DNA of 56,706 nucleotides from a virus (lineage: Duplodnaviria > Caudoviricetes), in IMG/VR virus record IMGVR_UViG_3300037783_000023, positions 1 to 56,706 of that record. The stretch is one strand, 5' to 3'. Both the position numbers and the translations under genes were made by a program. The notes beneath the pieces are model-generated. The model was given only the letters and a program-made list of their open reading frames with translations. It was not told where the DNA came from and made no database searches. Shown here piece by piece: positions 3,587-28,848 of this stretch (position 1 is its first letter; the number at the start of each line of letters is the position of its first letter).

Positions 3587-3637
3587 GGTTTTCTCCGTGG
3601 AATTGCGCCGCCCCTTAGATCGGGGCGGAGGTGGTGG

Positions 3638-3904
3638 TCATTGATCCAGCGCGTCGACAAGGTCGCTTTGCAGCGTGCCGAGCAGAGCGTTCGCCTGACG
3701 GCAGGCCTCCTGTATCCGTCGCCGGTCAGCGATGACCGCATCGTCCGGGCGGGAGAGGTGCTGGCAGTTTCGGCCGTTCGCCACGTCGCGCAGCAGCTTC
3801 AAGGCGGCCTCGTCGATAGCCGTGCGGGCGTTTTCGAGGGCGGCAAAAGCGGCCACGAAGTCCTCGCGGGTGTTGCCGTTCTGGTTCGGTCTTGCTCGGA
3901 TCAT
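3638..3904 (-). CDS. Hypothetical protein
   Basis: ATGA-coupled member of leftward operon. Confidence 0.65.
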   Translation of the reverse strand: MIRARPNQNGNTREDFVAAFAALENARTAIDEAALKLLRDVANGRNCQHLSRPDDAVIADRRRIQEACRQANALLGTLQSDLVDALDQ

Positions 3905-4158
3905 GTCGGGACCTGCGCGGCTTTGAGGCGGACCCGGATGCGGTAGAGGACGCCCGGGCCGGGGGCGCTCCCCTCTATGACCGGGTCAGAATAGAAAACC
4001 CGGCCATCAGCGAAGCGATAAGCCGAAACAGTCGCCTCTCCTGTCTCCCAAACGCGCGCTTGCGTCGCCCTGCGGCCGAGGACCATTTCGGACCATCTCA
4101 ATCCCTGCGGTCGAGCCATCCACCGGCGGCGCTGGAAGTCGTAGTGCCGTGCGTTCAT
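3901..4158 (-). CDS. Hypothetical protein (MNARHYDF...)
   Basis: GGAGG RBS and ATGA overlaps at both ends. Confidence 0.65.
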   Translation of the reverse strand: MNARHYDFQRRRWMARPQGLRWSEMVLGRRATQARVWETGEATVSAYRFADGRVFYSDPVIEGSAPGPGVLYRIRVRLKAAQVPT

Positions 4159-4388
4159 GCGGCGGCCTCCCATGCGAGCGTGCCCACCTCCCCGCTGCGC
4201 AGGCAGGTGACGCGATAGCGGCCGCGACCGAGGCGCTCCAAGCGGCGCAACGGGCCGCCCATCGAGGTCCGCTGGCGGGAAGTGTTGCGCCACGCCCGGA
4301 GCAGGCGCAGGGCGCGCTCCGAGGTCATGAGGCGGTCTGGCTGCGGGGCGTATTGGTTCCACGCCCATGTGAATGTCCGGGGCTTCAT
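4155..4388 (-). CDS. Hypothetical protein
   Basis: GGAGG RBS, ATGA overlaps. Confidence 0.65.
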   Translation of the reverse strand: MKPRTFTWAWNQYAPQPDRLMTSERALRLLRAWRNTSRQRTSMGGPLRRLERLGRGRYRVTCLRSGEVGTLAWEAAA

Positions 4389-4807
4389 GCTGGCACCTCC
4401 GCGCAGTTAGGGCAGTCCTCGTGGTCGTCGCTGCCGGGGTGGCCGCAGGCGCGGCAGGTCGGCAGGTCGTGGCCGTCGCCGTCGGGGCCTTGGGCTTCGA
4501 GGGCGCGTTCCTCCTTCTCCGCATCTTCGGCGCATCCGTCGCAGAGGCTGGCGAAGCCGAGGGTGCGCGTGGCCGGGGCCTCGCCGCAGCTCTCGCACCA
4601 GAGCGTCTCCGGCTCGTCTCCGATGAAATGGAACACCGCCGGCGCGTGCGCCCTCATCCCCGCCTCAAGGCTGAGATAGTCGGCCGAGCTGCTGCGCTCG
4701 CCGGGAGGGCCGTCCGAGAATTGCCACTCAATGTCCCCGAGCTTCGCTTGGTAGCCGTGGGCCTCGGGATCAGTCACGGCCCCCTTCACAATCCAGATCG
4801 CTTTCAT
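4385..4807 (-). CDS. Hypothetical zinc-ribbon protein
   Basis: CESC, CDGC, CRAC, CPNC motifs; coupled overlaps. Confidence 0.65.
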   Translation of the reverse strand: MKAIWIVKGAVTDPEAHGYQAKLGDIEWQFSDGPPGERSSSADYLSLEAGMRAHAPAVFHFIGDEPETLWCESCGEAPATRTLGFASLCDGCAEDAEKEERALEAQGPDGDGHDLPTCRACGHPGSDDHEDCPNCAEVPA

Positions 4808-5229
4808 TCGCCTGTCCCCTCGGAAATGACCTGAGCAAGGCTGCGGTCGCCCCAAAACAGGTCTTCGGGGTCGATCTGGCCGCGCTCGGTCGCTCGCTCA
4901 CAGATGTCCGCCAGCGTGGCGACCACTCCAAAGCCGCTGCCGTCCCAAAGCGCCTCGGCCTCGTCTCCTGTGCGGGCGAAGTGCGCGATGGCCTCCATTA
5001 TCTCCCGCGATGTGCAGCGGCTCTCACCCGAGGCAATGAAGTCCTCGCGCCCCGCATCCCACGCAGCACGATCAGCCTGATCGTTTGTCCCCGCCTCGTA
5101 TGCGGTCAAGCCCTCGGTGTTGCCCTCGGTCCCGACCGCATCGGCGCAAGCCTGCAACGCTGCCTGAGCGTCGTCTGCGTCGTGGGTCCCGAAGAACGTG
5201 CCGTTTGCGAATATGTGGAATTTAGCCAT
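4804..5229 (-). CDS. Hypothetical acidic protein (MAKFHIFANG...)
   Basis: AGGAG RBS; overlapping neighbours. Confidence 0.65.
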   Translation of the reverse strand: MAKFHIFANGTFFGTHDADDAQAALQACADAVGTEGNTEGLTAYEAGTNDQADRAAWDAGREDFIASGESRCTSREIMEAIAHFARTGDEAEALWDGSGFGVVATLADICERATERGQIDPEDLFWGDRSLAQVISEGTGE

Positions 5230-5452
5230 TTGTTTGCTCCTTCGGCTGGTGGATGCGACGGAGCGTGCCGTCGCTGTTGAAAACGTGGGTCGGGAGGTCG
5301 GGGTGGTAGCGGCGTGCGGCGGTGATCGCGTCGCGCTGGCGATAACAATAAGCGGCCTCACCGATCTGGTTCCCGTCGGCGTCGAACGGGGCGTAGGCCC
5401 ACCCCGTCGCGCGGTCGATGTGGAACACCTCGGTCCGGACGGGGGCGCTCAT
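5222..5452 (-). CDS. Hypothetical protein
   Basis: ATGA overlap with upstream gene. Confidence 0.6.
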   Translation of the reverse strand: MSAPVRTEVFHIDRATGWAYAPFDADGNQIGEAAYCYRQRDAITAARRYHPDLPTHVFNSDGTLRRIHQPKEQTNG

Positions 5453-5694
5453 GCTGCCCACCCGTTTTCGTACGCGACCGACCCGGTCCAGTTCCCGTGC
5501 TGGTCGTAGTTCAGCAGCCCGGGGGTGAAGTCGTAGACCGCGTGGATCAGGTCGAGGTGGGCGTCGCCCCCGACATCCTCAAGCAGGTGCAGGGCCGCGA
5601 TGCAGGTGCCGGGCGTGTCGAGCAGGCGGTCGCGCTCGGAGCCATCCTTCGTCAGCGCGATGGCGATTTCGTGGGCTTTGGAAAAGTTCATCAT
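5449..5694 (-). CDS. Hypothetical protein
   Basis: Preceded by TCCACGGAGA RBS element. Confidence 0.65.
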   Translation of the reverse strand: MMNFSKAHEIAIALTKDGSERDRLLDTPGTCIAALHLLEDVGGDAHLDLIHAVYDFTPGLLNYDQHGNWTGSVAYENGWAA

Positions 5695-5744
5695 GGTCGT
5701 GTCTCCGTGGAAAGATGGGGCGGGGCTCGCACCCCGCGTTTGAA

Positions 5745-5885
5745 TTATGCGGCGGCGGCTGTCTTCCAGCCGTCCACCCATGCCTCGATGCGGTTCTGAC
5801 GTGTGAACGGGCACACCCGGCGACCTGCGGCATAGTCAGCTTGACCGCGTTCAAAGGCTGTAAGGTTCTGCATTGCGATGGTCAT
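5745..5885 (-). CDS. Ribosome modulation factor (Rmf/CrpP-fold)-like 46-aa protein, not in supplied ORF track
   Basis: Hand translation MTIAMQNLTAFERGQADYAAGRRVCPFTRQNRIEAWVDGWKTAAAA; matches the Rmf pattern A..RG..(A)..G...CP[YF]...W..GW; TCCACGGAGA RBS. Confidence 0.7.
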   Translation of the reverse strand: MTIAMQNLTAFERGQADYAAGRRVCPFTRQNRIEAWVDGWKTAAAA

Positions 5886-5909
5886 GGTCTGTGTCTCCGT
5901 GGAAGTGCG

Positions 5910-6131
5910 TTAGAGCGGGCGGAATTCGATATTCTCGAAGTCGGCGATTTCGAAGCCTTCATCCTCGAAGGCGGCGAGGATCGCGGTCGGGCTGCGGTCG
6001 GTCTTGAAGAAGAACCCGCCCATCAGGTGTTGCGCGGTAGCATGTTCGCTGGCCTCAAGAACCAAGTTAAAGACACGCTCAAGGGTTTCGCGGCTGTATG
6101 TCTTAAAGCGGATGGTGCACTCGATGGTCAT
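5910..6131 (-). CDS. Hypothetical protein, first gene of attP-distal operon
   Basis: TCCACGGAGA RBS before ATG 6131. Confidence 0.65.
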   Translation of the reverse strand: MTIECTIRFKTYSRETLERVFNLVLEASEHATAQHLMGGFFFKTDRSPTAILAAFEDEGFEIADFENIEFRPL

Positions 6132-6166
6132 GTTCAGGTCTCCGTGGATGCGTTTGTGCATACAGG

Positions 6167-6217
6167 GACATTCCACTGACTTTCAGCGGGCGTCTACGAA
6201 AAAAACACTTTTTGTTG
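6167..6217 (-). promoter_or_regulatory. Putative leftward promoter with operator-like site
   Basis: -35-like TAGACG (6191-6196), 17 bp, GAATGT; upstream ACACTTTTTGTTG (6205-6217) resembles operator ACACAAATTGTTG (18808-18820) at the same offset from -35. Confidence 0.45.
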
Positions 6218-6256
6218 ATTTTTTTTTCGGGCTTAAAAGGGACTTGACCCCTGAAA

Positions 6257-6450
6257 AGGTGCGGGCGGCCTGTAAAAATCTTATTTGATTTCAATGGGGT
6301 CTAATTGCCCGCACTTCGCGCCAAGCGATTGTTTTTGTTGACAGGTAGCCGCCCCCTACGGGCTGCCACTACGCCAATTCCCCGCCTTTATCGCTTTGAT
6401 TTTGCGCCACTTTTCCAAAGGTGCGGGCGCGCTGGTCTCAGGTGCGGGCG
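6257..6450 (+). repeat. Integrase arm-type direct repeats AGGTGCGGGCG flanking attP core
   Basis: Exact copies at 6257-6267, 6419-6429, 6440-6450; inverted variant near 6305-6316. Confidence 0.7.
6353..6368 (+). other. attP core: 3' end of a tRNA (CCCCTACGGGCTGCCA), likely tRNA-Glu
   Basis: Ends in CCA, lies just downstream of int between arm repeats; matches my recollection of the Rhodobacteraceae tRNA-Glu 3' end. Confidence 0.7.
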
Positions 6451-6463
6451 AACCCGCCCCCGC

Positions 6464-7486
6464 TCAGCTGCGCGTCCAGCCCTTGAGCGCCAGCCTCCGG
6501 CGGCTCGCTGATTTGGTGTAGTGCAGGGCCATTGTGCCGCCCTCCCAGCCAAACATCGCCTCAAGCTCGTGGACCGTGGCACCCGCCTCGGCCGCCCGGA
6601 CAGCCGCGATCTTGCGCAGCCCGTGGGCCGTCTTATCGACCCCGGCCTCGCGGCACGCCCGGCGAAACATATTGCCGAAGCTCTCCTTGGTCAGCGGCCG
6701 ACCGTTCGCCCCGACGATGAAGTGCATGTCGCCCGTGGGGCCCGCGTCCAGCGTGGCGCGCAGCGGGGCCAATATCGGGATGATCACCTCGGTCCCGGTT
6801 TTCTCGGTCCGGATCGTCGCCACCCCCTCGCGGACGTGCTGGCGGCCGAGCGTCACAGCATCGCCCCGACGGAGCCCGGTGTAGAGGAGGACGTCCATCC
6901 AGACGCGCTCACGGGTCCCGAGCGCCCATCGCTCGTGGTAGCGCGTGACCTCCTCGTCGGTCCACACGGCAAAGCCCCCGGCCGACTTCGCCTTGGGCGC
7001 GCGGACCCCGAGCGTCGGGTCCTCGGCCACATGGCCCATCGCCAGCGCCCACTTGAACAGGCCGGACATGGTCTTGCGGAACGACGTCGCGGTGCCGGGC
7101 TTGTTCGCCCGGCGCTCGATCCCCTCGGCGATGGCCTGCCGGTCGATGGTCGAGAACGGGGCGTCTCCGGCGCTCTCAATCACACCCCGCAGGATCAGCT
7201 CGCGCTGGCGCTGGGTGGAGGGCGCGAGGTCTCGAAATGCCGTGGACCGCCGATACTGGTCGACCAACCACTCAAGCGATTTAGTATCCACCCGCCTCGG
7301 GGCTGGCGCTGGGCCCGCACCGCCCGTCAGCGCGGCCATGTAGGCGGCGTCAAAGCCCGGGTCATAGAGGTCGGGCAGGCGCACGCGCGGGCCATGCTGG
7401 CGGCGGAAATAATAGCAGACGCGGCCGTGCCGGGTCCGCTCGCGGGATACATAGGGCGGGATCTTCTTGGGCATGCCGTCCATCAC
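6464..7486 (-). CDS. int: Tyrosine integrase
   Basis: YTGLRRGD (R), TEKT (K), HGLRK (HxxR), FGW, HYT (Y) catalytic motifs. Confidence 0.95.
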   Translation of the reverse strand: MMDGMPKKIPPYVSRERTRHGRVCYYFRRQHGPRVRLPDLYDPGFDAAYMAALTGGAGPAPAPRRVDTKSLEWLVDQYRRSTAFRDLAPSTQRQRELILRGVIESAGDAPFSTIDRQAIAEGIERRANKPGTATSFRKTMSGLFKWALAMGHVAEDPTLGVRAPKAKSAGGFAVWTDEEVTRYHERWALGTRERVWMDVLLYTGLRRGDAVTLGRQHVREGVATIRTEKTGTEVIIPILAPLRATLDAGPTGDMHFIVGANGRPLTKESFGNMFRRACREAGVDKTAHGLRKIAAVRAAEAGATVHELEAMFGWEGGTMALHYTKSASRRRLALKGWTRS

Positions 7487-7686
7487 AGCCGCGGCCTCCT
7501 GACAATGTCAAGCGCCTCCGATGGGCTGGCTGGCTCCTCCGTTTGGGGAGCAGGCTCCCCCATCGGCTCGACGATCATCCTGCCGTCGCGCTCGAATACG
7601 AGCCGGAGGTCGCCCCCGGCGTCCTTGATCGCCCGCATGACGCGGGCCGCGTCCGCTTGAGTAAATTTAGCTGCTGTTCTTGCCAT
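7483..7686 (-). CDS. Putative excisionase / recombination directionality factor
   Basis: Small gene overlapping int start; FTQADAARVMRA motif common upstream of alphaproteobacterial integrases. Confidence 0.55.
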   Translation of the reverse strand: MARTAAKFTQADAARVMRAIKDAGGDLRLVFERDGRMIVEPMGEPAPQTEEPASPSEALDIVRRPRL

Positions 7687-7802
7687 ATCGTTTTCTATTG
7701 CGCCCGGGCCTCCCCGGTCCTATTTTGGCTCTCGCACAGATGCTCCGTGGAAAGACTGTCGTGCACCGGGGGAGCGGCAGCGATGCAGCTCCCCCATCCT
7801 TT

Positions 7803-8132
7803 TTACCGCTCGCCTTGGAGAACGATCAGCCCGGCCGCCCGGCGGCGCTGCTGCGTCCGGATCAGCGCGAGCAGAATGTCCTCCGCAGACACACGCGGCC
7901 CCGAGCTCCGGCGGTCGAGCGCGTCGTGGCACTGGTCGCAGGCGTCCACGAGGAACAGATCGTCCGGCTTCTGCGCCATCCCTGCGAGGTTGAACATCCG
8001 CAGGTGCGCGCCGACGGTATATGCCGGGTCCTCCCGGCAGACCTCGGGCAGGCGCAGGGTGCAGTCCTGACCGGCCGAGGCCTTGCGGATCGCGTCGGAG
8101 GCGGCGTTGCCGGACTTGATGTTTTCGTTCAT
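7803..8132 (-). CDS. DUF1364 (YbcO-like) Zn-binding putative nuclease
   Basis: AGQDCTLRLPEVC...AHLR...KPDD...ACDQCHDALD. Confidence 0.8.
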   Translation of the reverse strand: MNENIKSGNAASDAIRKASAGQDCTLRLPEVCREDPAYTVGAHLRMFNLAGMAQKPDDLFLVDACDQCHDALDRRSSGPRVSAEDILLALIRTQQRRRAAGLIVLQGER

Positions 8133-8133
8133 C

Positions 8134-8382
8134 TCACCGGGTTCCTGTCTTTGGTGGGGCTGGCGTTGTGGGGGCCGCAGGCTGTGGCTGTCGGGGAGGG
8201 GAAAAGCCCGGCAAGGTCTTCATCTTAGGTGCCCATCGCCAAGGGCCGCAGCGACCGCAGGTGCACTCCTCCCTCCATCGCGCGGTGAAAATCCCGCGCT
8301 TCATCCACCGCATTTGCAGCCCGCAAACGCAGTCACTTCGCACATGGACCCGAGCTGCTCCGGTGATACTGTTTCTGGGCAT
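8134..8382 (-). CDS. Hypothetical Cys-rich protein
   Basis: GGAGG RBS; CVCG and CTCGRC motifs. Confidence 0.5.
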   Translation of the reverse strand: MPRNSITGAARVHVRSDCVCGLQMRWMKRGIFTARWREECTCGRCGPWRWAPKMKTLPGFSPPRQPQPAAPTTPAPPKTGTR

Positions 8383-8383
8383 G

Positions 8384-9103
8384 TTAGCCTCCCATCTGGT
8401 CGATGTTGCCGCGATGAACGTCGACGCTGTAGGCCGCGACCCACGGGTTCTGATCCCATGCGTCGGGGCCGTTGATGCTGTCCCAGAGGGTGCGGAAGCC
8501 GCGCGCATACGCATCGGGATCAAGACCCGCCCAAGCATACATTCCGGCCATTCCTCCGCCGTAACGGTCGGGCCTTGCGCCCTCTGCCTTGGCATCCATT
8601 TCGCTGATCTCCTGCAACCGCTGCACCCGCACGTCCGTGACCATCAGTGTCAGGCGGGACGCCCAGCGGGGCATGTGGATAGAGGATCGGGTGCGGCCTA
8701 GCTCGATCAGTGTGCCCTTGTTGTCATCGGCCTCGTACCAGACGCCAATCGCGCTCTTTGCGCCTTCATCCTCTCCGATCTTAGTGGGTGACAGGTGGTT
8801 AAACTCGGACCTTACGCGCCACGTCTCCTTGACCCAAAGGCGATCACCGGGAGCGATGGGGATGCGCTGTGGGCAAACGTGTAGCGCGCCCGGTTCGATT
8901 TGGCGACTTTCGAACGTGGCCCCCAATTTGCCCTTTGCAGAGGGCTTTGCCATGTACCCAAGCGGTCCGACATTATGCAGCGACCACGCATCGGGGTTTT
9001 CGTTGACATCGGCCAGACCAGACGTGCGCCGGGTCTGGGTCTTAGTGCCGGCCAGCAAAGCGCGGATCATCGGGGCGGAAAAGAGGATGGGCTTGTCATT
9101 CAT
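8384..9103 (-). CDS. ASCH/PUA-like phage protein
   Basis: PILFSAPMIRALLAGTKTQTRR ... GDRLWVKETW ... SIHMPRWASR ... NPWV signature. Confidence 0.7.
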   Translation of the reverse strand: MNDKPILFSAPMIRALLAGTKTQTRRTSGLADVNENPDAWSLHNVGPLGYMAKPSAKGKLGATFESRQIEPGALHVCPQRIPIAPGDRLWVKETWRVRSEFNHLSPTKIGEDEGAKSAIGVWYEADDNKGTLIELGRTRSSIHMPRWASRLTLMVTDVRVQRLQEISEMDAKAEGARPDRYGGGMAGMYAWAGLDPDAYARGFRTLWDSINGPDAWDQNPWVAAYSVDVHRGNIDQMGG

Positions 9104-9104
9104 G

Positions 9105-9278
9105 TCAGGTGTCCTCGTTGCGATTAGTGCGCAAAACAGACGCGGCCAAAAGGGCGAGCGCTGCGCCTGTCGGGGGGTGGTGCGCAATGGTGGCGACCTG
9201 TCTGCGCTTTGGCGCGGTCGCCGTCTGCTTGGCCTTGCGGGCTTTGGTTCGGTTCTTCTGCGATGACTTGCGGGGCAT
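9105..9278 (-). CDS. Small basic hypothetical protein
   Basis: GGAGG RBS; TGATG overlap. Confidence 0.45.
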   Translation of the reverse strand: MPRKSSQKNRTKARKAKQTATAPKRRQVATIAHHPPTGAALALLAASVLRTNRNEDT

Positions 9279-9577
9279 CACGCCTCCCCCTCTGCGATAG
9301 CGCGGAGGGCGGTGCGGGCAATCTGACGGCACTCCTGCACAAGCGCTCCCGGCTTCCCGTCTGTCGTGTCAACAACTGCTTCCAGCGCAGCCCGCAAGGC
9401 ATCGCGTTCGGCGGCGAGGGCGTCGAGGGCTACATCATACACAAGAACATCACCGCGATCCGCCAATCGGGCTGCGACCTTGATCGCATCTTTAAGGCAG
9501 TTTTCTTTGTTGACCTTTATACCCTCAGCCATCAGTCTGCCGTTTCTGTATCTGTCAAATCGGTAAGGTGCGCTCAT
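9278..9577 (-). CDS. Hypothetical protein
   Basis: Coupled in early operon. Confidence 0.6.
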   Translation of the reverse strand: MSAPYRFDRYRNGRLMAEGIKVNKENCLKDAIKVAARLADRGDVLVYDVALDALAAERDALRAALEAVVDTTDGKPGALVQECRQIARTALRAIAEGEA

Positions 9578-9798
9578 TTAATCGTTCCCTTTCGTGTGTT
9601 CCATGTCTCCGATGCCGCGTCGTTACTCAGCATCCTGACTTGAGCGTGACCTTTCGGGCAGGCTATGATGCGGTATTGATACGGGTCGCCATGCAACTGA
9701 CAGTGCTTGATCTTGGACAGCATCCAGTGGGGCGATGCGCCGCAGAACGGACACGGCAGCAATTCGGGCTTCGGGCCGGAAAGTAGCGCGTCATCCAT
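9574..9798 (-). CDS. Lar-family restriction alleviation-like protein
   Basis: ELLPCPFCG ... ETWNTR signature; GGAG RBS. Confidence 0.65.
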   Translation of the reverse strand: MDDALLSGPKPELLPCPFCGASPHWMLSKIKHCQLHGDPYQYRIIACPKGHAQVRMLSNDAASETWNTRKGTIK

Positions 9799-10057
9799 CG
9801 CTCTGCTCCTTTGTGGCTTGGTAGGCGGCGAGGGCAATTCGCTGGTCCGCGACTTGGTCAATACCAATGGTGACGGATATTCCATTGGGCGCAGGCACAA
9901 ACGGCGTGCGGCGTATCAATCGCTCCATCTCGTCCGCCAGCGCGTCCGCCTTGGCGAGTTGCGCCTCAAGGGCTTCGATGCGGGTTAGTGCTTGCGGTAT
10001 CAAATGTCCGGGGTCGTACTCCCACCATTCCCTCATTCGCTCTTTAAGATCATCCAT
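9791..10057 (-). CDS. Hypothetical coiled-coil protein
   Basis: AAGGA RBS; MDDLKERM...IEALEAQL. Confidence 0.6.
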   Translation of the reverse strand: MDDLKERMREWWEYDPGHLIPQALTRIEALEAQLAKADALADEMERLIRRTPFVPAPNGISVTIGIDQVADQRIALAAYQATKEQSDG

Positions 10058-10086
10058 CACAAAATCCTTAGTTGTAGCGGGGCATG

Positions 10087-10509
10087 TCAGCTGTCCTCCG
10101 CGACCGCCCGCAGTGCGGCTTTGAGCGCGCTGCGGGCTTCCGATACCGTCGTCCAGTGCTCTGCGTCGTCTGAGGCATTGAGCACCCGGAACATGGCGTT
10201 CAGGGCGACCCGCCACACTTCGCCGTCGTCGATTATCTCGAGCAGGGTCACGGCCGCGCGCCGAGCCTCCCGCCTCTTGGCCGATGGGGCCGTTCGGACG
10301 CTGCGAAACATCGGGCCTCGGATCGCGGCCGCCTCCCGCAGCGCTTCCTCCCGCGCAGGCTCAAGGGCTGCGATGGCGGCGTCGGCTTTGGATAGTGCGA
10401 TCTCCTGACAGCACTTGAGGTATTCTTGGCAATCTTCGCAGTCGCAGTTTGCGGCTGTATCAAAGGCGTCAGGGTCGATAGCCCGCGCGACACGTTCCCG
10501 CTTATCCAT
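10087..10509 (-). CDS. Hypothetical protein
   Basis: ERVARAI...ADAAIAAL motif common in phage early genes. Confidence 0.6.
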   Translation of the reverse strand: MDKRERVARAIDPDAFDTAANCDCEDCQEYLKCCQEIALSKADAAIAALEPAREEALREAAAIRGPMFRSVRTAPSAKRREARRAAVTLLEIIDDGEVWRVALNAMFRVLNASDDAEHWTTVSEARSALKAALRAVAEDS

Positions 10510-11112: not shown

Positions 11113-11693
11113 GTCGTCTCTCCTTTCGCGCGGGCAATGGCGGCAATGGCGGCCGCCATTGCCAGCAACATCGGTTCCATAGAGTGGAGGCGGAAATCGT
11201 CGTGCTCTTTTGACAGGCGGACAGCTCGTCTTGCGACTGCGACCAGTTCCTCGAGCGCTTCGAGCAGATTTGGCGCGGCAGCGTCCGGCTCCTTGACCAG
11301 CTCCATCGTCCGCGGGAATACGGCTGCCAGCATCCTCCGCTTCTCGTCGTCCGTGAGCAGCTTGCTCGCGAGCAGCGAGTTCATCGTTTTGGGGTCAACA
11401 TACTCCGGCGCGACCAGAGGGGTCGTCACCGCCGGGGGGCCGTTTCTGGGGGTTTCGGCAGTCGGAAACGCGAAAACGACCTTGAATTTCCCATCGCCAA
11501 CAATCTCTGCACGGGGCTTGCCCGTGAAATGAGCGAGCCGGGCCGCGACTTTGACGTCTGGGTGATCCATGCAGGCGCGACGGACAAAGTCCGCCCTTTC
11601 GTCCGCCAGAGCCTTCTCGCGGTCTGAGATACTTTTGAATTCGGCCTTTTGATCGTCCGTCATGCGGATGAAGATCTCGATTTGGTGCGTCAT
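11109..11693 (-). CDS. Hypothetical protein with C-terminal AAAPxLLEAL phage motif
   Basis: AGGAG RBS; ATGA overlaps. Confidence 0.6.
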   Translation of the reverse strand: MTHQIEIFIRMTDDQKAEFKSISDREKALADERADFVRRACMDHPDVKVAARLAHFTGKPRAEIVGDGKFKVVFAFPTAETPRNGPPAVTTPLVAPEYVDPKTMNSLLASKLLTDDEKRRMLAAVFPRTMELVKEPDAAAPNLLEALEELVAVARRAVRLSKEHDDFRLHSMEPMLLAMAAAIAAIARAKGETT

Positions 11694-12103
11694 GCCTGTG
11701 CTCCTTTCTGCCGAGCCGCGAGCAGCGCGTCGGCGTATTGATAAGCATTGGTTGCCATATCCTCCGGGGTCGGGAGGCCTGCGTCCGGAGTGGCCCAAGC
11801 GCCGGCGACGATCCCGACCAGCACCCGGATCGCGATTTCATCGCGCAGCTCGGCGTCGTCGAGCGATGGCGGCTCGGATTGGCGCGGGCGGTCGGCGTGG
11901 GTCTCCGCCAGCTCGCGCAGCACCCGGTTCTGTGCCTCGGCAATCTCGCGCCACGTCTTGCCGCCCGCATTGCGCAGCGCGCGGACGTCGCCCTCGCGGA
12001 CGTCCAGCAGCTCTGCGGCCGAGGTCACGCCGAGCTGTCGCAGGGCAGCCATTGCTCGGATTGAGAGCTCAAGGTCGTCGGGCCACTTTTCAATTTTACT
12101 CAT
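11690..12103 (-). CDS. RNA polymerase alpha-CTD-like domain fused to an RD.xA...AY..ADA.. module
   Basis: DDLELSIRAMAALRQLGV...LRNAGGKTWREI aligns by eye with RpoA CTD (DDLELTVRSANCL...PNLGKKSLTEI); TCCACGGAGA RBS. Confidence 0.75.
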   Translation of the reverse strand: MSKIEKWPDDLELSIRAMAALRQLGVTSAAELLDVREGDVRALRNAGGKTWREIAEAQNRVLRELAETHADRPRQSEPPSLDDAELRDEIAIRVLVGIVAGAWATPDAGLPTPEDMATNAYQYADALLAARQKGAQA

Positions 12104-12165
12104 GTATCGTCTCCGTGGATTGGTGCGGGGCCGGAGCCCCGCGATTTCGTTCAGCTCGGGTGAGC

Positions 12166-12468: not shown

Positions 12469-12535
12469 AGGGTCAGTCCTTTTGTTTGCGAGCTGTTGCT
12501 CAGGGGGTTTGTGGGGCGCAGGCCCCGCAACGGGC

Positions 12536-12745: not shown

Positions 12746-12780
12746 CCGCGGGTCCTCTTTGCTGGTGAACGGCTTTAGCG

Positions 12781-16166: not shown

Positions 16167-16180
16167 AAATTGCCTTTCGG

Positions 16181-16561
16181 TTAGGGTCGGATTTGATCGG
16201 CGCGCAGCCGGATCGGGGCGTGGGTCGCCGCCATTTCGGGATGGCGACGCTGTAGGTCTTTAAGTTCGAGGTATTCAGCCCGACTGATCGGGCGCTTGCA
16301 GACGGAGAGCCACGCCCGGCGGGGGTCGCGCGGCTCGCCGTTGATTTCGCAGACCATGCGCTCGTCGCAGGTCAGCTCCCCGTGCTCGTCCACCTCGCGG
16401 ACGATTGAGATTGAGGCGGGGACGAACGGGCCGCCTTTGACGAGCCGGGTTTTATACCAGCCGCAATGGGGCTCCCCCTCGTGGATGGGGACTGGCGCCC
16501 CGGCCAGCGCAGCACGATGCCACGCATACAGCCGGGAAACGGGGGTCGGCTGGCGGATCAT
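16181..16561 (-). CDS. Hypothetical protein
   Basis: GWYKTRLVKGGPFVP motif; coupled. Confidence 0.65.
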   Translation of the reverse strand: MIRQPTPVSRLYAWHRAALAGAPVPIHEGEPHCGWYKTRLVKGGPFVPASISIVREVDEHGELTCDERMVCEINGEPRDPRRAWLSVCKRPISRAEYLELKDLQRRHPEMAATHAPIRLRADQIRP

Positions 16562-16872
16562 TTTCCGCCCCCCTCAGCCGCGATCATGGCGTCGGCGACA
16601 GCGTAGCAGCCCTGAGCAAGCCTCTCCGGGGTCAGCTGATTTTCCGGGTGCGCGCTCAGAAGTGCTTGCATCGCCAATTCCGCAAGACGCTTGCGCTCCG
16701 CGGCCTTGCCGTTCTGCCGGGTCAATTCGCCTGAAAGGTAGAGCTTAAGCGCGTGGTTGATCTCAGTGCTCATCGACCGGCTGTTCTGATCGGCCGAAGC
16801 CGCCACCCGCTCCTTGAGCTCGGGCGCCATTCGCAGCCCATAGGGCGCGACCTGTTTGCTCTCCGCGCTCAT
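16558..16872 (-). CDS. Arc-family ribbon-helix-helix protein + C-terminal shared module
   Basis: YGLRMAPELKERV...NSRSMSTEI; C-term CYAVADAMIA. Confidence 0.8.
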   Translation of the reverse strand: MSAESKQVAPYGLRMAPELKERVAASADQNSRSMSTEINHALKLYLSGELTRQNGKAAERKRLAELAMQALLSAHPENQLTPERLAQGCYAVADAMIAAEGGGK

Positions 16873-17459
16873 GGCTTGCGCTCCCTTTCGGCCATCATCG
16901 CGTCGGCGATCAGGTAGGCTTTGCGCGCGACGAGGGTGTCTTGCGCGCAGAGGTCCGCAAGGCCTACGAGCGCGGCCTCGGCGAAGCGGTCGCGCATGTC
17001 TGCTGCAGGAGCGTTGTTGTAGTGGGCGTCCAAAGCCTCGCAGATTTCTGCGTTGACGGACTTCTCTCCCGACGCCGCAGATACCTGCTCATAAAGCGCC
17101 TGCGGGACGCGGATCGTGTAGCGCGTGTATTCCTGCTGGCGCGCCGATTGACCGCCAAGGTGCGCCTGCAATGCGAGAACGATCTCCCCGTTCATCGTTC
17201 TGTTCGCCTCAGATGCTTTTGACTTAACTCCATCCCGCAGGTCGTGCGGGATGCGAATGCGAAGCTCTGCGTCTCCACGCGCCATGTGGTCGTCTCCCTG
17301 AATTTCGTGATTGATCGCCGCGCTCAAGATTTGAACGATCTCGGCGTTCATTGAGCGGCCCGCTTTGCGGGCCCGCTTTTTGATCTCGTCGCGCATCCCG
17401 CCCGGAAGGCGGACCATCATTTTGGGCAAATGCCGTGATGGGCTGTCTTGAACGCTCAT
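16869..17459 (-). CDS. Triple Arc-domain protein + C-terminal shared module
   Basis: MVRLP...RSMNAEI; LRIRIP...RTMNGEI; YTIRVP...KSVNAEI; then MRDRFA...AYLIADAMM. Confidence 0.8.
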   Translation of the reverse strand: MSVQDSPSRHLPKMMVRLPGGMRDEIKKRARKAGRSMNAEIVQILSAAINHEIQGDDHMARGDAELRIRIPHDLRDGVKSKASEANRTMNGEIVLALQAHLGGQSARQQEYTRYTIRVPQALYEQVSAASGEKSVNAEICEALDAHYNNAPAADMRDRFAEAALVGLADLCAQDTLVARKAYLIADAMMAERERKP

Positions 17460-18580
17460 ACAGACACCAGATCGAGCAGCTTGCCGCCCTTGCGCTCGAG
17501 TGCGACCCGGGCGTCCTGATGCTCGATGCTCTTTGCGTGGGCTGTGACGCCGGTCACCGCGTCCCACACGGTCTCAATTGGGCGGCTCTCCTCCCGCTCA
17601 TGCGCCGCCTTGATCGCGGTCGCCTCCGGCCGCGTGAAACGCTTAAGCAAAAAGGCGTCGAGGTCGTCGTCCACCCGCTTCTGCTGCGCCTCCCGGATGG
17701 TCTGCTCGATGGGCGCGGCGCTGGCGGCTGAATACTCCATCAGCACCGGGCTGATTTCCTCCAGCCAGCGGTCAGGAGCCGATGCGGTGTGGCGGAGCCT
17801 GATTTCCTTGAAGCCCTCGGCTCCCCACACGATGCGGTTTGAGCAGGCGTAGTCGAACAAGAAAAAGGCGGCCCCGATGGACTGGCTGCCGACCTCGCTG
17901 TTCCAGACAAAGAAACCGCGAGCCAGCGAGCCGGAGCGCCCGTTCCGGCGGTTCGGCATCTCGACCCGGTTCACCTCGTCGGCCAAGAACACGAAGATGT
18001 CACGATCTGATCCATAAATGGTGGTGTTCGCCTTGGTGATCGGCACGGCCTGTCCGAATTCGCCCGGCACCCGGAAGTCGCCGGTGCGGCCGTCACCGAA
18101 TTTGTCCGTAAGGGCGGTCACGATTTCCTCGTTCCACACCCTGCCGTAACGAGGCCCTGTCGCGGCGCGCAGTTCGTTGTGCGCAATAAGCTCGCCGCCC
18201 ATTGCGACCGGCTCGTTCTCGGTCCGCAGCAGCCCGACCTCCTCAGCGTCGCGATGGAACCGCAGGCAATAATTGAGGGCGTCGGCCGCAATCGGCGCAG
18301 GCAGTTTGCGCAGCTCGCGCGCCGAGAACCCTGCGAGCGAGGCGAGCTGGCCGAATGACCAGTGCGTCGGGTCGACGATCGTCCCCTCGTTATCGATTGT
18401 GAGGCCCCACTTGGGGTCTGCCGGGTGCGGCTGGACCTCAATGCGGCGGGTGGTCGTCACCGAGGCGACGGAGCGTTCGCGCTGCCCGGCGACCGCGTCG
18501 CGCAGGTCGGTCAGGCTCAAGAACCGCTCGTCGGCCGGGCGCGAGGCCCACTGGCGGGATGCGTGCATAAGTGTCGTCAT
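17456..18580 (-). CDS. DUF932-family protein
   Basis: QWASRPADERFLSL...THWSFGQL...GFFVWNSEVG...CSNRIVWG. Confidence 0.75.
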   Translation of the reverse strand: MTTLMHASRQWASRPADERFLSLTDLRDAVAGQRERSVASVTTTRRIEVQPHPADPKWGLTIDNEGTIVDPTHWSFGQLASLAGFSARELRKLPAPIAADALNYCLRFHRDAEEVGLLRTENEPVAMGGELIAHNELRAATGPRYGRVWNEEIVTALTDKFGDGRTGDFRVPGEFGQAVPITKANTTIYGSDRDIFVFLADEVNRVEMPNRRNGRSGSLARGFFVWNSEVGSQSIGAAFFLFDYACSNRIVWGAEGFKEIRLRHTASAPDRWLEEISPVLMEYSAASAAPIEQTIREAQQKRVDDDLDAFLLKRFTRPEATAIKAAHEREESRPIETVWDAVTGVTAHAKSIEHQDARVALERKGGKLLDLVSV

Positions 18581-18610
18581 GTTCGTGTCTCCGTGGATTT
18601 GGGGGTGGGC

Positions 18611-18748
18611 TCAGTTCAGGCCGAGCCCGTGGCCGATCAGCAGGGCCAGCCAGCCCGTGCCGAAAATCGAAAGCGCGCCGATCAGGTCGCCGAGCAGCTC
18701 GGCGTAGCGGCCGCGCTGAGAGTGGGGGGTGGTCGGTTTGTGTTCCAT
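18611..18748 (-). CDS. Small membrane protein, first gene of PL operon
   Basis: GGAGG RBS; single hydrophobic helix. Confidence 0.6.
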   Translation of the reverse strand: MEHKPTTPHSQRGRYAELLGDLIGALSIFGTGWLALLIGHGLGLN

Positions 18749-18750
18749 AC

Positions 18751-18765
18751 GTTCCTCCGTTGTTC
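18751..18765. promoter_or_regulatory. Alphaproteobacterial LexA (SOS) box over PL start region/RBS
   Basis: GTTC-CTCCGTT-GTTC, exact GTTC-N7-GTTC. Confidence 0.65.
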
Positions 18766-18769
18766 GCGG

Positions 18770-18820
18770 AACATAACCAACAATTTGTGGATCAGACAAG
18801 CGAAAAAACACAAATTGTTG
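18770..18820 (-). promoter_or_regulatory. PL-like promoter with two repressor operators
   Basis: TTGTCT (18794-99)-N18-TATGTT (18770-75); operators CAACAATTTGTGG (18778-90) and ACACAAATTGTTG (18808-20). Confidence 0.7.
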
Positions 18821-18856
18821 AAATTAAATTTTGAGGCTGGACACAGATCTAGACTT

Positions 18857-18871
18857 GTTCTTAATTCGTTC
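18857..18871 (+). promoter_or_regulatory. LexA (SOS) box immediately upstream of ORF 18874
   Basis: GTTC-TTAATTC-GTTC, overlapping a -10-like TTAATT 17 bp after TGGACA (18838-43). Confidence 0.75.
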
Positions 18872-18873
18872 TC

Positions 18874-19065
18874 ATGTGCAGGACTTACAACGACACAGAG
18901 CTAGACCGTCGCCTCGATCGCATGATTGAGGTGGCAACCGAGCTCGGGTGTCCGCTGGACCATGTCGTCGAGCACATGGGGCGGTGCGATCAAAGTGATT
19001 TTCGGAGGTTCTCCGGTAGCCCGTCGCTTCTGCCCCGGTACACGAAGTCAAGCGTGACGCCGTAA
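18874..19065 (+). CDS. Small SOS-regulated protein, candidate antirepressor
   Basis: ATG 2 bp after LexA box; likely leaderless; 3' end overlaps the repressor gene convergently. Confidence 0.55.
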   Translation: MCRTYNDTELDRRLDRMIEVATELGCPLDHVVEHMGRCDQSDFRRFSGSPSLLPRYTKSSVTP

Positions 19066-19247
19066 CGAGCGCAAAGCTCTATCGCTGCCTCCACCGGGAT
19101 GCGGCGAAACCCGCGTTCCCAGTTATTATATTGAGCCAAGTTAAAGCGGTTCTTGAGCGCCCAATCTTTTTGATTGAGGTCCGAAAAGGCCCTGCGGATG
19201 CGTACCAGACGCTGCCCGATCTCATGGTGTTCAAACGTGTCACTCAT
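18990..19247 (-). CDS. Prophage repressor, HTH_XRE only (85 aa)
   Basis: IGQRLVRIR...NQKDWA...YNNWERG...YGVTLDFVY; divergent from cro; no S24 autopeptidase. Confidence 0.85.
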   Translation of the reverse strand: MSDTFEHHEIGQRLVRIRRAFSDLNQKDWALKNRFNLAQYNNWERGFRRIPVEAAIELCARYGVTLDFVYRGRSDGLPENLRKSL

Positions 19248-19531
19248 GGTCGAGTGATCCACGAAATGTGAACCGCCAAGCAAGCAACCACTTGTGGGCT
19301 TGCATTTTCCCACAATTTGTTGATTTTGAGGGGATGCAGACAGCTAAAGAAATCTCCGCCCGCTTCGGGCAAAGAACCATCGCCGCAACGCTGGGCGTCA
19401 GCGTCGGGGCGGTCAGCAACGCCGTTGTCCGGGGTCAGTTCCCGGCGAGCTGGTACGTCGCAATTCAAAGCCTGTGCAACCGTGACGGCGAGCTCTGTCC
19501 CGTCGAGGCATTCGCTTTCAAACCTATTCAT
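19244..19531 (-). CDS. Possible antisense ORF (95 aa) opposite cro, stop overlapping repressor start
   Basis: GGAGGAGG-N7-ATG within hairpin+TCCACGGAG element; TGA overlaps repressor ATG (ATGA). Confidence 0.35.
   Translation of the reverse strand: MNRFESECLDGTELAVTVAQALNCDVPARRELTPDNGVADRPDADAQRCGDGSLPEAGGDFFSCLHPLKINKLWENASPQVVACLAVHISWITRP
19259..19330 (+). promoter_or_regulatory. OR/PR-like region with operator repeats
   Basis: CCACAATTTGTTG (19310-22), CAACCACTTGTGG (19285-97), degenerate CCACGAAATGTGA (19259-71); TTGCAT -35 at 19300-05. Confidence 0.7.
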
Positions 19532-19681
19532 CAGTGCGCCTCCTCCGTGGAAAGTGAAGCGGGCGACGGCGCTTGTTCTGCCGCCCTGATAAACATTGTC
19601 CCAGCGAGTTCGGGCGAAAGTCAATCTAAAGAAACTTTTTGTCAGCCCAACCACGACAAATCGCTTCGGGGCGCGCTGTGA
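19334..19681 (+). CDS. Cro-like HTH protein
   Basis: FGQRTIAATLGVSVGAVSN...GQFPASWY; divergent from repressor. Confidence 0.75.
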   Translation: MQTAKEISARFGQRTIAATLGVSVGAVSNAVVRGQFPASWYVAIQSLCNRDGELCPVEAFAFKPIHQCASSVESEAGDGACSAALINIVPASSGESQSKETFCQPNHDKSLRGAL

Positions 19682-19682
19682 C

Positions 19683-19907
19683 ATGCCGTGTCACTTCTGC
19701 GGCGCAGCACTGGCCCCCTACGGCTACGGGCTGCCCGGGCTGCGCACTGACAAGCCAGAGGGCCGTCGCGGCTATCTGTGGGCGTGCGCGGATCACCGGG
19801 ACGCCGCTGAGCACAAACGAAATCAGGCAATCGGTGTCGGCCTGTCCGGAGCGCGCCAAGCGCCCCGGGGAAACGACACTTCCCCCACGCAACAAGGTGA
19901 AACATGA
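19683..19907 (+). CDS. Small zinc-finger protein
   Basis: CHFC ... CADH. Confidence 0.6.
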   Translation: MPCHFCGAALAPYGYGLPGLRTDKPEGRRGYLWACADHRDAAEHKRNQAIGVGLSGARQAPRGNDTSPTQQGET

Positions 19908-20245
19908 CCTATCCCCACAATTCTGATTTTTCGGTCAGCGACACGCAGCTGATGGCCCACCTCGCGGAGATTGAGAGCGCGAAGGACGAGGTCAGCAGCG
20001 CCAGCGGCGACCTGCGCTCCACGATCAAGCGCATCCTCGAGGACGCGGGCTACGAGAAGGGGGCGCTGCAGATGGTGCGCGACCTCGACGCTCTCAGCGA
20101 CACAAAGCTCGCCGACCGCCTCCGCACGCTGTGGCCGATGCTGGACGCCATGCGGCCGCATTGGGAGGAGCGCATCCGCGACATGCTCGACCGCAAGGCG
20201 TCCGAGACCGGCGACATGGACGCTGACATGCAGGGCGGCGCCTGA
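19904..20245 (+). CDS. Hypothetical protein, weakly GapR/DUF2312-like
   Basis: HNS...QL...IE...AGY..GAL..V helical pattern. Confidence 0.5.
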   Translation: MTYPHNSDFSVSDTQLMAHLAEIESAKDEVSSASGDLRSTIKRILEDAGYEKGALQMVRDLDALSDTKLADRLRTLWPMLDAMRPHWEERIRDMLDRKASETGDMDADMQGGA

Positions 20246-20391
20246 TGGCGGCTGCGGCCATGCAGGGGCGCTTTCGGCGCCTCCCGGGGTGGGGCAAGCG
20301 GCGGCTGCCTCGGTTCCGCACGGTGATTACCTACACCGGGCAGACAAAGCGACTTCAGCTGCACGCCACGCGCGGCTGGAAGGTCTGCTGA
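20245..20391 (+). CDS. Small basic protein (48 aa), not in ORF track
   Basis: TGATG overlaps at both ends; MAAAAMQGRFRRLPGWGKRR...LHATRGWKVC. Confidence 0.5.
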   Translation: MAAAAMQGRFRRLPGWGKRRLPRFRTVITYTGQTKRLQLHATRGWKVC

Positions 20392-20870
20392 TGATCGTCG
20401 CCGGGCTGGACCTCGCAACCATGACCGGCGTCGCGGTCGGCCCCCTCGGGGGTCGCCCTGCGCTGTGGTCGGAGGACCTGAAATCCTGCGACGAGCTGCC
20501 CCTTCATGGGTCGCGCCTCATGGCTGTGCAGGGTCTCACGCATCGGCTGATCACTGAATACGGTGTCCGGGCTATCGCCATCGAAAAGCCGTTTGTCGCG
20601 GCGCACAATAATTGGGAGACCACCCTTCTCACGATGGGGCTGACAGCCTGCGTGGTGAGCTGGGCGGCGCGCAAGGGGGTGCCGGTGGCGGTCTACCCCT
20701 CGCAGACCGTGGCGAAGCACCTCGTCGGCTCGGGCAAGATGCCCCGGGCCGAAAAGAAGGAGGCGATCCTTGCCGAGTGCCGTGCGCGCGGCTGGGACCC
20801 CCGAGACGACAATCAGGCGGACGCAGCGGCGGTGTGGAGCCTCGCCTGCGCCCGTTTTTCCACGGAGTAA
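20391..20870 (+). CDS. RuvC-like Holliday junction resolvase
   Basis: IVAGLDLA..TG, IAIEKP, DDNQADA acidic catalytic motifs. Confidence 0.8.
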   Translation: MIVAGLDLATMTGVAVGPLGGRPALWSEDLKSCDELPLHGSRLMAVQGLTHRLITEYGVRAIAIEKPFVAAHNNWETTLLTMGLTACVVSWAARKGVPVAVYPSQTVAKHLVGSGKMPRAEKKEAILAECRARGWDPRDDNQADAAAVWSLACARFSTE

Positions 20871-20873
20871 CCT

Positions 20874-21785
20874 ATGAGCCACTACATGACCGCTCTGGCC
20901 ATGCAGCAACGAGGTCTTAAACCGGCCGCGAAAATCGTGCTGTATTGGCTGGCGGATCACCACAATCAGCAGACCGGGCTGTGTTTTCCCAGCCTGAGCA
21001 CGCTCGTCGACGAGTGCGAAATGGACCGCTCGACGGTGATAAAGCACCTGAAGTCGCTTGAGCGAGACGGGCTGATCCGAAAGGAGCATCGGACCCGTGA
21101 CAACGGGTCAATCACAAGCAACGCTTACACCCTGCTGCTGCGCGAGCGAACCACCGAAAAGGCCGCTTCGTCCAACAAAACAGCTAGTGGAGAAACGCCA
21201 CCCCCCCTAGTGGAAATTTCCCACCCCCCTAGTGGAGAAACGCCACCCCCCCTAGTGGAAATTTCCCACCCCCATAACCTTGGAAATAATAACCTTGGAA
21301 ATGAACAAGAAGATGGCGACCGCGATGCGGCCGCCCCGACTTCGCTGACCGATCTGGAAGGGACAGCACCGGCTGAGCCTCAAAAGCCCAAGTCGCCACC
21401 GAAGATCGTCGGCGGGCTTTACGACGGGTGCCGTTCGCTGGACCAAGAGTTCGAGCGGGTTTGGGTCCAGCACCCGCGCAAGGTCGGGAAAGGCGCGGCC
21501 CGCTCGGCGTGGGGTCGGGCGCGGTCAAAGGCCTCGTTCGAGGAGATTGCCCGCCCCCTCGCGGTCTGGATCAAGCTGCAGGCCGGCTCTGAGCCCAGCT
21601 TCATCTGCCACTTCTCGACATGGCTGAACGAGGAGCGCTGGCTGGACGACCAGACCCACGCCCTCAATCGCAGACAGACGACGTCCGACCGCCTGCGGCG
21701 GCTCGGCGCTTCCACGGAGGCCGGTGACGACACGCTCGCCGGTCCAAGAACCCCCCCGCAAATCGAGCTGAGGATGGACCCATGA
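20874..21785 (+). CDS. Replication initiator with N-terminal HTH_36
   Basis: KIVLYWLADHHN...CFPSLSTL...STVIKHLKSLE..GLI...SNAY; PRKVGK..A..AW; STWLNEERW. Confidence 0.85.
   Translation: MSHYMTALAMQQRGLKPAAKIVLYWLADHHNQQTGLCFPSLSTLVDECEMDRSTVIKHLKSLERDGLIRKEHRTRDNGSITSNAYTLLLRERTTEKAASSNKTASGETPPPLVEISHPPSGETPPPLVEISHPHNLGNNNLGNEQEDGDRDAAAPTSLTDLEGTAPAEPQKPKSPPKIVGGLYDGCRSLDQEFERVWVQHPRKVGKGAARSAWGRARSKASFEEIARPLAVWIKLQAGSEPSFICHFSTWLNEERWLDDQTHALNRRQTTSDRLRRLGASTEAGDDTLAGPRTPPQIELRMDP
21184..21302 (+). repeat. Iterons and AT-rich repeats: probable replication origin
   Basis: Four CTAGTGGA...CCAC units (21184, 21207, 21229, 21252), i.e. two exact 45-bp repeats, then ATAACCTTGGAAAT twice. Confidence 0.8.
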
Positions 21786-28847: not shown

Positions 28848-28848
28848 C

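Follow-up and report, generated by a model that had tools for sequence, protein, structure and literature searches.

The window analyzed here is the whole of IMG/VR record IMGVR_UViG_3300037783_000023, a complete viral record that spans 56,706 bp, carries direct terminal repeats and has a G+C content of about 65%. Its gene list, made with a codon-usage caller of our own and five manual fixes, and family scans of its proteins (59 via Pfam, 40 via PHROGs) point to a temperate tailed phage. Late, structural genes occupy the plus strand from 29397 to the end and continue into 181–2107. Two non-structural blocks, presumed from this layout to be early, complete the picture: a leftward block on the minus strand from about 19531 down to 2252, containing genes for DUF932, two Arc-like proteins, an exonuclease, RecT, SSB, NinB, a protein resembling the RNA polymerase alpha C-terminal domain (alpha-CTD), YbcO, an integrase, small open reading frames (ORFs) and a DUF4942 methyltransferase; and a rightward block (19904–29511) with RuvC-like, initiator, ParB-like, tgt-like, QueC, FolE, QueD and QueE genes. 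No tRNA was found in a scan of the window. The subject of this analysis is a 9-nt tag, TCCACGGAG, composed of TCCAC followed by GGAG, which recurs in front of genes of these two blocks.

The tag occurs 11 times in the window against 0.83 copies expected (standard deviation 0.84), and none of 100 shuffles gave 11. The original prediction had listed ten copies, all in the early half, with less than one expected by chance; the expectation is confirmed and the ten coordinates are exact, while an eleventh copy at 48475–48483 (minus strand) sits in the late half, so the confinement to the early half is not strictly true. The copies are listed below. Contigs A and B are related contigs, G007, G008 and G026 are other records compared, and joints are breaks in similarity to metagenome contigs.

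3593–3601, minus strand: tag, 6 nt before ATG 3586 of the DUF4942/N6-methyltransferase gene (2252–3586); the orthologue on contig A is tagged too
5703–5711, minus strand: tag, 8 nt before ATG 5694 of an 81-aa gene; metagenome joints at 5713 and 5714
5895–5903, minus strand: tag, 6 nt beyond the upstream stop codon and 9 nt ahead of ATG 5885, where a 46-aa Rmf/CrpP-like gene begins; no hairpin
6140–6148, minus strand: tag, 8 nt before ATG 6131 of a 73-aa gene, after a 332-nt gap; no hairpin; joint at 6152
7743–7751, minus strand: orphan tag, 57 nt before ATG 7686, the start of a small gene that lies upstream of the integrase; hairpin at 7768–7795
12111–12119, minus strand: tag, 7 nt before ATG 12103 of the alpha-CTD-like gene
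18589–18597, minus strand: tag, 8 nt before ATG 18580 of the DUF932 gene, at the 5' edge of a cassette (18580–16869) absent from G008
19543–19551, minus strand: tag, 11 nt before ATG 19531 of a 95-aa ORF with a weak homologue in G007, probably the first gene of the leftward operon
20859–20867, plus strand: tag, 6 nt before ATG 20874 of the replication initiator gene (HTH_36); the G007 orthologue is untagged
21711–21719, plus strand: in-frame tag in the 3' part of the initiator gene, coding; an orthologous copy is present in the G007 initiator
48475–48483, minus strand: reverse tag, antisense inside the plus-strand late gene 48214–48642; absent from A and B

Eight of these copies lie 6–11 nt before an ATG (mode 8), across a spacer with many A and C residues and few G. 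Seven of the starts had been named previously as taking their ribosome-binding site from the tag (ATG 3586, 5694, 5885, 6131, 12103, 18580 and 20874), and the tag indeed stands at each of them; the eighth is ATG 19531. The copies at 7743, 21711 and 48475 have no believable start, and that at 48475 is probably due to chance. Around the orphan at 7743, a non-coding block upstream of the small gene next to the integrase (GGTGCA.GACA.TCTTTCCACGGAG.ATC) is conserved between the window (7700–7800) and G007 (L353, 8860–8960); read on the plus strand, the hairpin at 7768–7795 is followed by a T-run.

Use of the tag follows gene class: it stands before 7 of 34 leftward genes, 1 of 19 rightward genes and 0 of 34 late genes (Fisher p = 0.015, early vs late), which bears out the original prediction that no late gene uses it. 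All seven tagged leftward genes are among the 16 with an upstream gap of at least 10 nt (Fisher p = 0.0017 among gapped genes), the tagged initiator, with a gap of 3 nt, being an exception to this rule. Gapped late genes rely instead on AGGAGG-type sites; among these, GGAGGTGATCC is the full complement of the canonical 16S tail. One-mismatch variants are not enriched in the window (17 matches including the 11 exact ones, against 19 expected), and none of the six variants falls in the early region; a start is thus served by the exact tag or by a ribosome-binding site that does not resemble it.

Two related phage contigs share TCCACGGAG, and the phenomenon therefore extends beyond the window. 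Contig A (55.8 kb, from a Loktanella metagenome-assembled genome, MAG) has 20 exact copies, 19 of them before an ATG and none in its structural block (278–22898), as well as four ACCACGGAG variants before ATGs. Contig B (31.6 kb, from a Rhodobacteraceae MAG) is incomplete, being cut off at the integrase, and has four copies, all before an ATG. The structural genes common to these contigs and the window phage encode proteins with approximately 60–86% identity for B and 40–70% for A. When one genome per species was scanned for the extended form of the tag (80 loci examined of 97 stretches), only A and B had several copies. Over the window and both contigs there are 35 exact copies, 32 of which are followed by an ATG within 4–11 nt, and only eight ATG-linked one-mismatch variants, six of them differing at position 1. 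Conservation drops sharply outside W-T-CCACGGAG-A in a core-anchored alignment, in which positions 1–8 are fixed by the search pattern. At the methyltransferase start, where the proteins of the window and A are 70% identical, the 9-mer is identical and the hairpin, linker and spacer all differ; at the junction shared by window position 5895 and B position 3140, the 9-mer is again identical and the flanks differ. The sense orientation, the 6–11 nt spacing, the GGAG core, the absence from late genes and this exactness between relatives whose flanks change support the original proposal of a signal acting at the level of mRNA or translation.

The copies are concentrated on phage contigs, which indicates that the tag is a phage feature and not a general ribosome-binding context of the host. 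Of 27 copies in the 3.7-Mb MAG that includes contig A, 20 lie on that contig and 7 in the remaining 3.64 Mb; a reversed control gave 10, and the density is 0.36 per kb on A versus 0.0019 per kb in the rest of the MAG. The MAG of contig B has four of its nine copies on B, and elsewhere in both MAGs only 3 of 12 chromosomal copies precede an ATG. Being absent from late genes and not enriched in the MAG chromosomes, the tag does not behave as the generic host or late context that the original prediction had set against itself. No other phage-type cluster was seen in 301 genomes of the family, of which six with high counts were opened. In one of these (G186, 116 copies) the copies lay inside coding sequence and not at starts in the 20 places read; in another (G082) a dispersed insertion-sequence-like repeat with TCCACGGAGGGGAGCGGTCATG was present eight times, on several contigs, and is probably the start of an insertion-sequence gene; and four more (G110, G053, G331 and G068) had only 0–4 ATG-linked copies.

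A hairpin commonly precedes the tag. All six hairpins reported in the original prediction fold as stated, and the tag is mostly unpaired in the predicted ensemble. Apart from the hairpin at 7768–7795, they are as follows:

3608–3628, minus strand: GC hairpin, CGCCCC-7-GGGGCG, ending 6 nt 5' of the tag; -16.0 kcal/mol, z -3.4
5720–5737, minus strand: GC hairpin, 8 nt 5' of the tag; -14.6 kcal/mol, z -2.4
12125–12142, minus strand: GC hairpin, GCGGGGC-4-GCCCCGC, 5 nt 5' of the tag; -17.9 kcal/mol, z -3.0
18607–18628, minus strand: hairpin spanning the stop codon of the upstream ORF; -16.2 kcal/mol, z -3.5
19561–19624, minus strand: sigma-70-like promoter TTGACT-18-GACAAT (19624–19595), then a leader hairpin (19561–19586); -13.1 kcal/mol

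Across the window, A and B, the 40 nt upstream of the tag fold at -10 kcal/mol or below at 28 of 36 sites, compared with 4 of 19 untagged leaders of the window (Fisher p = 7e-5); the 36 sites were selected by regular expression with an ATG following, include the doubtful copy at 48475 and exclude one B site containing an N. The mean upstream fold is -14.5 kcal/mol (z -2.07) at tagged sites and -8.2 kcal/mol (z -0.17) at untagged leaders. The stems comprise 6–10 GC-rich pairs and end 3–15 nt before the tag with no U-tract after them, so they are not canonical intrinsic terminators. Some stand at the 5' end of the transcript, with a promoter directly before them, and the others follow a stop codon between two cistrons.

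In contig A, the arrangement is more elaborate. Between 22900 and 37263 there are seven copies of an 80-nt unit that combines the tag with a promoter-like box, the palindrome ATAGGCAnATnGCCTAT and a variable hairpin. Mean column identity over the seven units is 70%, the invariant blocks being GCTT, GGCA.AT.GCCTAT and TCCACGGAG, and the hairpin varies in sequence while keeping its shape. The unit reads as a sigma-70-like promoter (TTGCAC/CTTCC, a spacer of approximately 16–17 nt, then TATGTA) with the palindrome between the hexamers and the hairpin at the expected transcript start. The palindrome resembles an operator common to seven small transcription units.

Scans of viral contigs for the extended motif (2 and 65 loci) showed a cluster in G026 alone, and the 20 records counted had at most three exact copies each. 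G026 is a 27-kb viral contig without protein similarity to the window phage, A or B; it has five [T/A]CCACGGAG starts at 22.4–26.6 kb, two of which follow a GCTAACAT box and a hairpin. Terminase relatives have 0–4 copies each (20 opened of 80 loci returned), and the sole relative found through the DUF932 protein, an S-ESS1-like record, has none. Since the DUF932 gene of this S-ESS1-like phage and the initiator gene of G007 are both untagged, the tag belongs to the lineage and not to the genes. A candidate for a second tag in G007, ATTGAGGAG with six copies, turned out to be a coding tandem repeat: at 33093–33544 this related provirus carries approximately six copies of a 99-bp tandem repeat inside a coding region. 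Lists of the most frequent 9-mers were uninformative.

Several edges of homology between these genomes coincide with the tag. Between the window phage and B, homology breaks off and resumes at the tag to either side of the 73-aa gene, where gene order differs: B has an extra gene between the tag and the 73-aa gene, which in the window directly follows the tag at 6140, and near 5895 homology stops just after the tag and ATGACCA. The window phage and G008 share the end of an upstream ORF at 18611 (stop 13 nt before the tag at 18589), after which G008 passes to the orthologue of 16181–16561; the window alone has an insertion of tag, DUF932 gene and two Arc genes. In the comparison with A, the tag is the point where similarity across the methyltransferase gene sets in. 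Near-relative contigs from pond and marsh metagenomes have joints at 5713, 5714 and 6152, 2–4 nt from the 5' edge of the tag, and also at 6123, among the joints listed (15 of 36). The same contigs have joints away from the tag (16560/17463, 9264/10077 and 8092/9225), and joints beside repeated 20-nt blocks, such as 5720/18577, may be alignment artefacts, at least one of them probably so. The original suggestion that the tag serves as a microhomology for cassette shuffling, with breakpoints at the motif, thus holds in part: the edges against B, G008 and A and some metagenome joints fall at the tag, and other joints fall elsewhere.

This combination of properties closely resembles the start-associated sequence (SAS) of Cluster K mycobacteriophages. 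As described in the 2011 report (PMC3203893), the SAS is a short asymmetric motif present in 11–19 copies per genome, 3–9 nt before mostly ATG starts, combining a Shine-Dalgarno core with conserved bases that are unable to pair with 16S rRNA; it is found only in the non-structural half, in one orientation apart from a lone reverse copy, before genes with an upstream gap, and is absent from the host genome. About half of the copies carry an upstream extension, the extended SAS (ESAS), which holds a putative promoter and an inverted repeat (PMC3203893). In papers of 2024 and 2025 the role of the SAS is still described as unknown, and a putative promoter is assigned to the ESAS (PMC11373665, PMC12699233). 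On these accounts, the tag of the window phage and A shares with the SAS its copy number, proximity to ATG, restriction to non-structural genes, orientation, preference for gapped genes and rarity in the host. The seven units of A, with promoter, palindrome, hairpin and tag, are likewise reminiscent of the ESAS, as is the promoter-like site with hairpin at 19543 in the window, where elsewhere only the hairpin is present. The spelling differs: TCCACGGAG, at 9 nt, is unrelated to the 13-nt Cluster K motif GGGATAGGAGCCC, with which only GGAG is common, and because it fails to match GGGATAGGAGCCC with two or fewer mismatches we regard it as an analogue and not as a sequence member. Furthermore, the conserved extension is on the 5' side only and the Shine-Dalgarno core is just 4 nt long; the partner of the tag is an RNA-type GC hairpin of variable sequence, unlike the 17-bp inverted repeat of conserved sequence in the ESAS; and the hosts are probably Alphaproteobacteria rather than Actinobacteria. 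A parallel for a separate spelling comes from Cluster EF Microbacterium phages, for which Jacobs-Sera et al. (2020, PMC7302621) describe an SAS-like motif, GGGAAAGGACCCC, in ten copies, all linked to an ESAS. There, too, an unrelated phage group has its own spelling and a weakly conserved upstream partner, although spelling and host phylum differ from the present case and all ten copies are ESAS-linked.

Our favoured interpretation, to which we give a probability of roughly 55%, is that TCCACGGAG is a start-associated sequence in this sense, a fixed, lineage-private tag at the translation starts of independently translated non-structural genes. GGAG is most likely the Shine-Dalgarno sequence. 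TCCAC is invariant and has no match to the complement of the canonical 16S tail, which is presumed here from the late site GGAGGTGATCC and the conserved alphaproteobacterial 3' end; the late AGGAGG-type sites, including GGAGGTGATCC, argue for a canonical host anti-Shine-Dalgarno. (T)CCAC, invariant yet apparently unable to pair with this tail, would then be kept by something other than Shine-Dalgarno pairing, which leaves a host factor, some cis-acting property of the RNA itself or upkeep through recombination to account for CCAC. In the mechanism we propose, hairpin, tag, spacer and ATG(ACC) would together form a portable translation-initiation module that works independently of context: the hairpin would fence off upstream RNA and might stabilize the mRNA end, and the tag would stay single-stranded and recruit the 30S subunit. 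The same block of 20–25 nt, because it heads many unrelated genes, could double as a seam for cassette swaps between phages.

Several observations weigh against this interpretation. Three of the 11 copies in the window are off starts, and two of them (7743 and 21711) are kept in G007, which has no start-associated copies, so the 9-mer occurs in other conserved contexts too. G007 and G008 have the same replication and recombination genes and manage without the tag, and host genes make no use of it, which would be odd if it were merely a better ribosome-binding site. The failure of CCAC to pair is judged from late-gene ribosome-binding sites and from what we take to be the conserved alphaproteobacterial 16S tail, no 16S gene having been found in either MAG. 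The hosts of A and B are assigned by metagenomic binning, no RNA run was among the sequencing runs listed for this phage, and both the term early and translation from the tagged ATGs are deduced from genome layout.

An alternative that we consider unlikely, though still worth serious attention, is that the tag is mainly a recombination seam, in which the block of tag, ACACGACC and ATGACC (20–25 nt) provides short homology for RecT and the exonuclease or for a host system. Repeated exchange would keep the copies identical and no specific reader of CCAC would be needed; the phage encodes RecT, exonuclease, NinB, SSB and a RuvC-like resolvase, and the homology edges against B, G008 and A and the joints at 5713, 5714, 6152 and 6123 lie at or near the tag. 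Mosaic joints of phages fall at gene boundaries anyway, however, and other joints in the same data are without the tag, while some may be alignment artefacts. Homogenization should also keep the flanks alike, but conservation drops sharply at the edges of the tag and the units of A have diverged around an invariant 9-mer, and the fixed spacing to the ATG and the hairpin are left unexplained. Somewhat less plausible again is a trans-acting regulator, which might be an RNA-binding protein or an endoribonuclease of host or phage origin, binding or cutting the hairpin with UCCACGGAG and so switching the tagged genes together. CCAC is as invariant as GGAG, the sharp edges of the element fit a binding site, the tagged genes form a non-structural class, and the same possibility is raised for the SAS in PMC3203893. 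Yet no phage protein is common to all carriers: the window phage and A share only five non-structural genes (the methyltransferase, the RuvC-like gene, 22748–23170, 24622–25182 and part of the ParB-like gene), and G026 shares no protein with the window phage, A or B. No RNA-binding or RegB-like family appeared among the 59 Pfam-scanned or 40 PHROG-scanned proteins, and no CsrA was found, leaving a host factor or a non-homologous one as conceivable candidates. The likeness to Csr/Rsm sites noted in the original prediction finds no support, as neither the phage nor either of the two incomplete MAGs yielded a CsrA (PF02599) and GGA is single-stranded beside the hairpin and not in its loop; nor does its candidate reader at 8384–9103, which has no Pfam match, matches only PHROG families of unknown function and has no homologue in A or B.

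Other phages offer precedents for such control. T4 RegB cuts GGAG in early ribosome-binding sites and T4 RegA represses early mRNAs, so that there, too, an early mRNA class is marked at the Shine-Dalgarno sequence for joint post-transcriptional control; no RegB or RegA homologue is present among the scanned proteins of the window phage, however, and the T4 target is bare GGAG and not a 9-mer. T7 has RNase III processing hairpins between its early genes, which are comparable in that they immediately precede the ribosome-binding sites of consecutive early genes within an operon; the stems here, of 6–10 bp, are too short for a typical RNase III site, and some lie at 5' ends behind promoters. Antitermination, another RNA-level role originally suggested, seems unlikely: lambda nut (boxA and boxB), which works with an N-like protein, is present as one site per early operon, and 11–20 copies per genome, some directly behind promoters and others before every other gene, argue against it. 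Integron cassettes, which depend on an IntI integrase and carry attC hairpins with a conserved core at the 3' end of each cassette, were also considered and rejected: the phage has a single integrase, a tyrosine integrase of the usual phage type, and the hairpins vary with no common core except the tag.

A more speculative idea, to which we assign only a small chance, is that the tag is the address label of an infection-time translation programme, in which a trans-acting factor would prefer or spare mRNAs with the hairpin and CCACGGAG, whose Shine-Dalgarno is a minimal one of 4 nt, while ordinary Shine-Dalgarno mRNAs of the host are shut down. A component shared by these hosts could be the factor or, in the window phage, a phage protein such as the tagged 46-aa Rmf/CrpP-like one, which has relatives that occupy the anti-Shine-Dalgarno pocket of the 30S subunit. 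Were this true, the core in the unrelated G026 would represent convergence on one host target, and SAS-type elements would have a first mechanism. A site acting at the DNA level appears very improbable, whether as an operator or as the methylation site of the DUF4942 methyltransferase. TTCCACGGAG is an imperfect palindrome (TTCC-AC-GGAG), a tagged methyltransferase is common to the window phage and A, and two copies that are not at gene starts, 7743 and 21711, are conserved; but strict sense orientation and a 6–11 nt spacing to ATG are not expected of such a site, and G026 is tagged without similarity to any protein of the window phage, the methyltransferase included (B is incomplete). We give least credence of all to a small-RNA regulon in which a phage RNA exposing CUCCGUGGA pairs with all tagged ribosome-binding sites. 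The reverse copy at 48475 does place the complement on the sense strand of a late gene, and a single reverse SAS is also reported for Cluster K phages, but that complement is mostly base-paired in an ordinary fold (z -0.72). Non-coding stretches of the window have no complement of 7 nt or longer outside the tag copies, the 6-mers in 18 of its gaps are the tags' own opposite strand or other Shine-Dalgarno sites, no independent anti-tag was found in A or B, and Rfam gave no matches.

Start-associated sequences have been known in actinobacteriophages since 2011 and, in the literature searched, are described only from phages of Actinobacteria. No published description of TCCACGGAG in phages or Rhodobacteraceae prophages turned up in literature searches, judged mostly by title. 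An independent, differently spelled case in phages probably of Rhodobacteraceae suggests that the phenomenon is general, and as Gram-negative, genetically tractable bacteria the Rhodobacteraceae would provide a second system for testing it. The options are also narrowed: the tag is itself under selection and tied to a hairpin, is not a host habit, needs no common phage protein, has no apparent anti-tag RNA and coincides with mosaic seams. For annotation, it fixes the start codons of eight small genes in the window phage.

Some features of the window are of separate interest. The tagged gene at 5745–5885 (minus strand) encodes a 46-aa protein resembling ribosome modulation factor (RMF), which provides its best PDB matches (E 0.0077); NCBIfam gives matches to RMF (E 4.7e-4) and to the Rmf/CrpP family (E 0.0022), both below the family cut-offs, whereas Pfam gives none, and A, B and the other relatives compared lack a homologue. 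The tagged gene at 11690–12103 (minus strand) encodes a 137-aa protein in which residues 9–56 correspond to the RNA polymerase alpha C-terminal domain, and may interfere with host transcription. Two stretches inside the leftward block have no called gene, 9533–10086 (554 nt) and 18749–19243 (495 nt), and 9265–10076 is missing from one related metagenome contig. Within the initiator gene (20874–21785), four alternating direct repeats of 22–23 bp (CTAGTGGAGAAACGCCACCCCCC / CTAGTGGAAATTTCCCACCCCC) at 21184–21273 probably represent replication-origin iterons like those in lambda O. At 25449–29511 on the plus strand, genes for ParB-like, tgt/DpdA-like, QueC, GTP cyclohydrolase I, QueD and radical-SAM QueE-like proteins are clustered in what looks like a 7-deazaguanine DNA-modification module.

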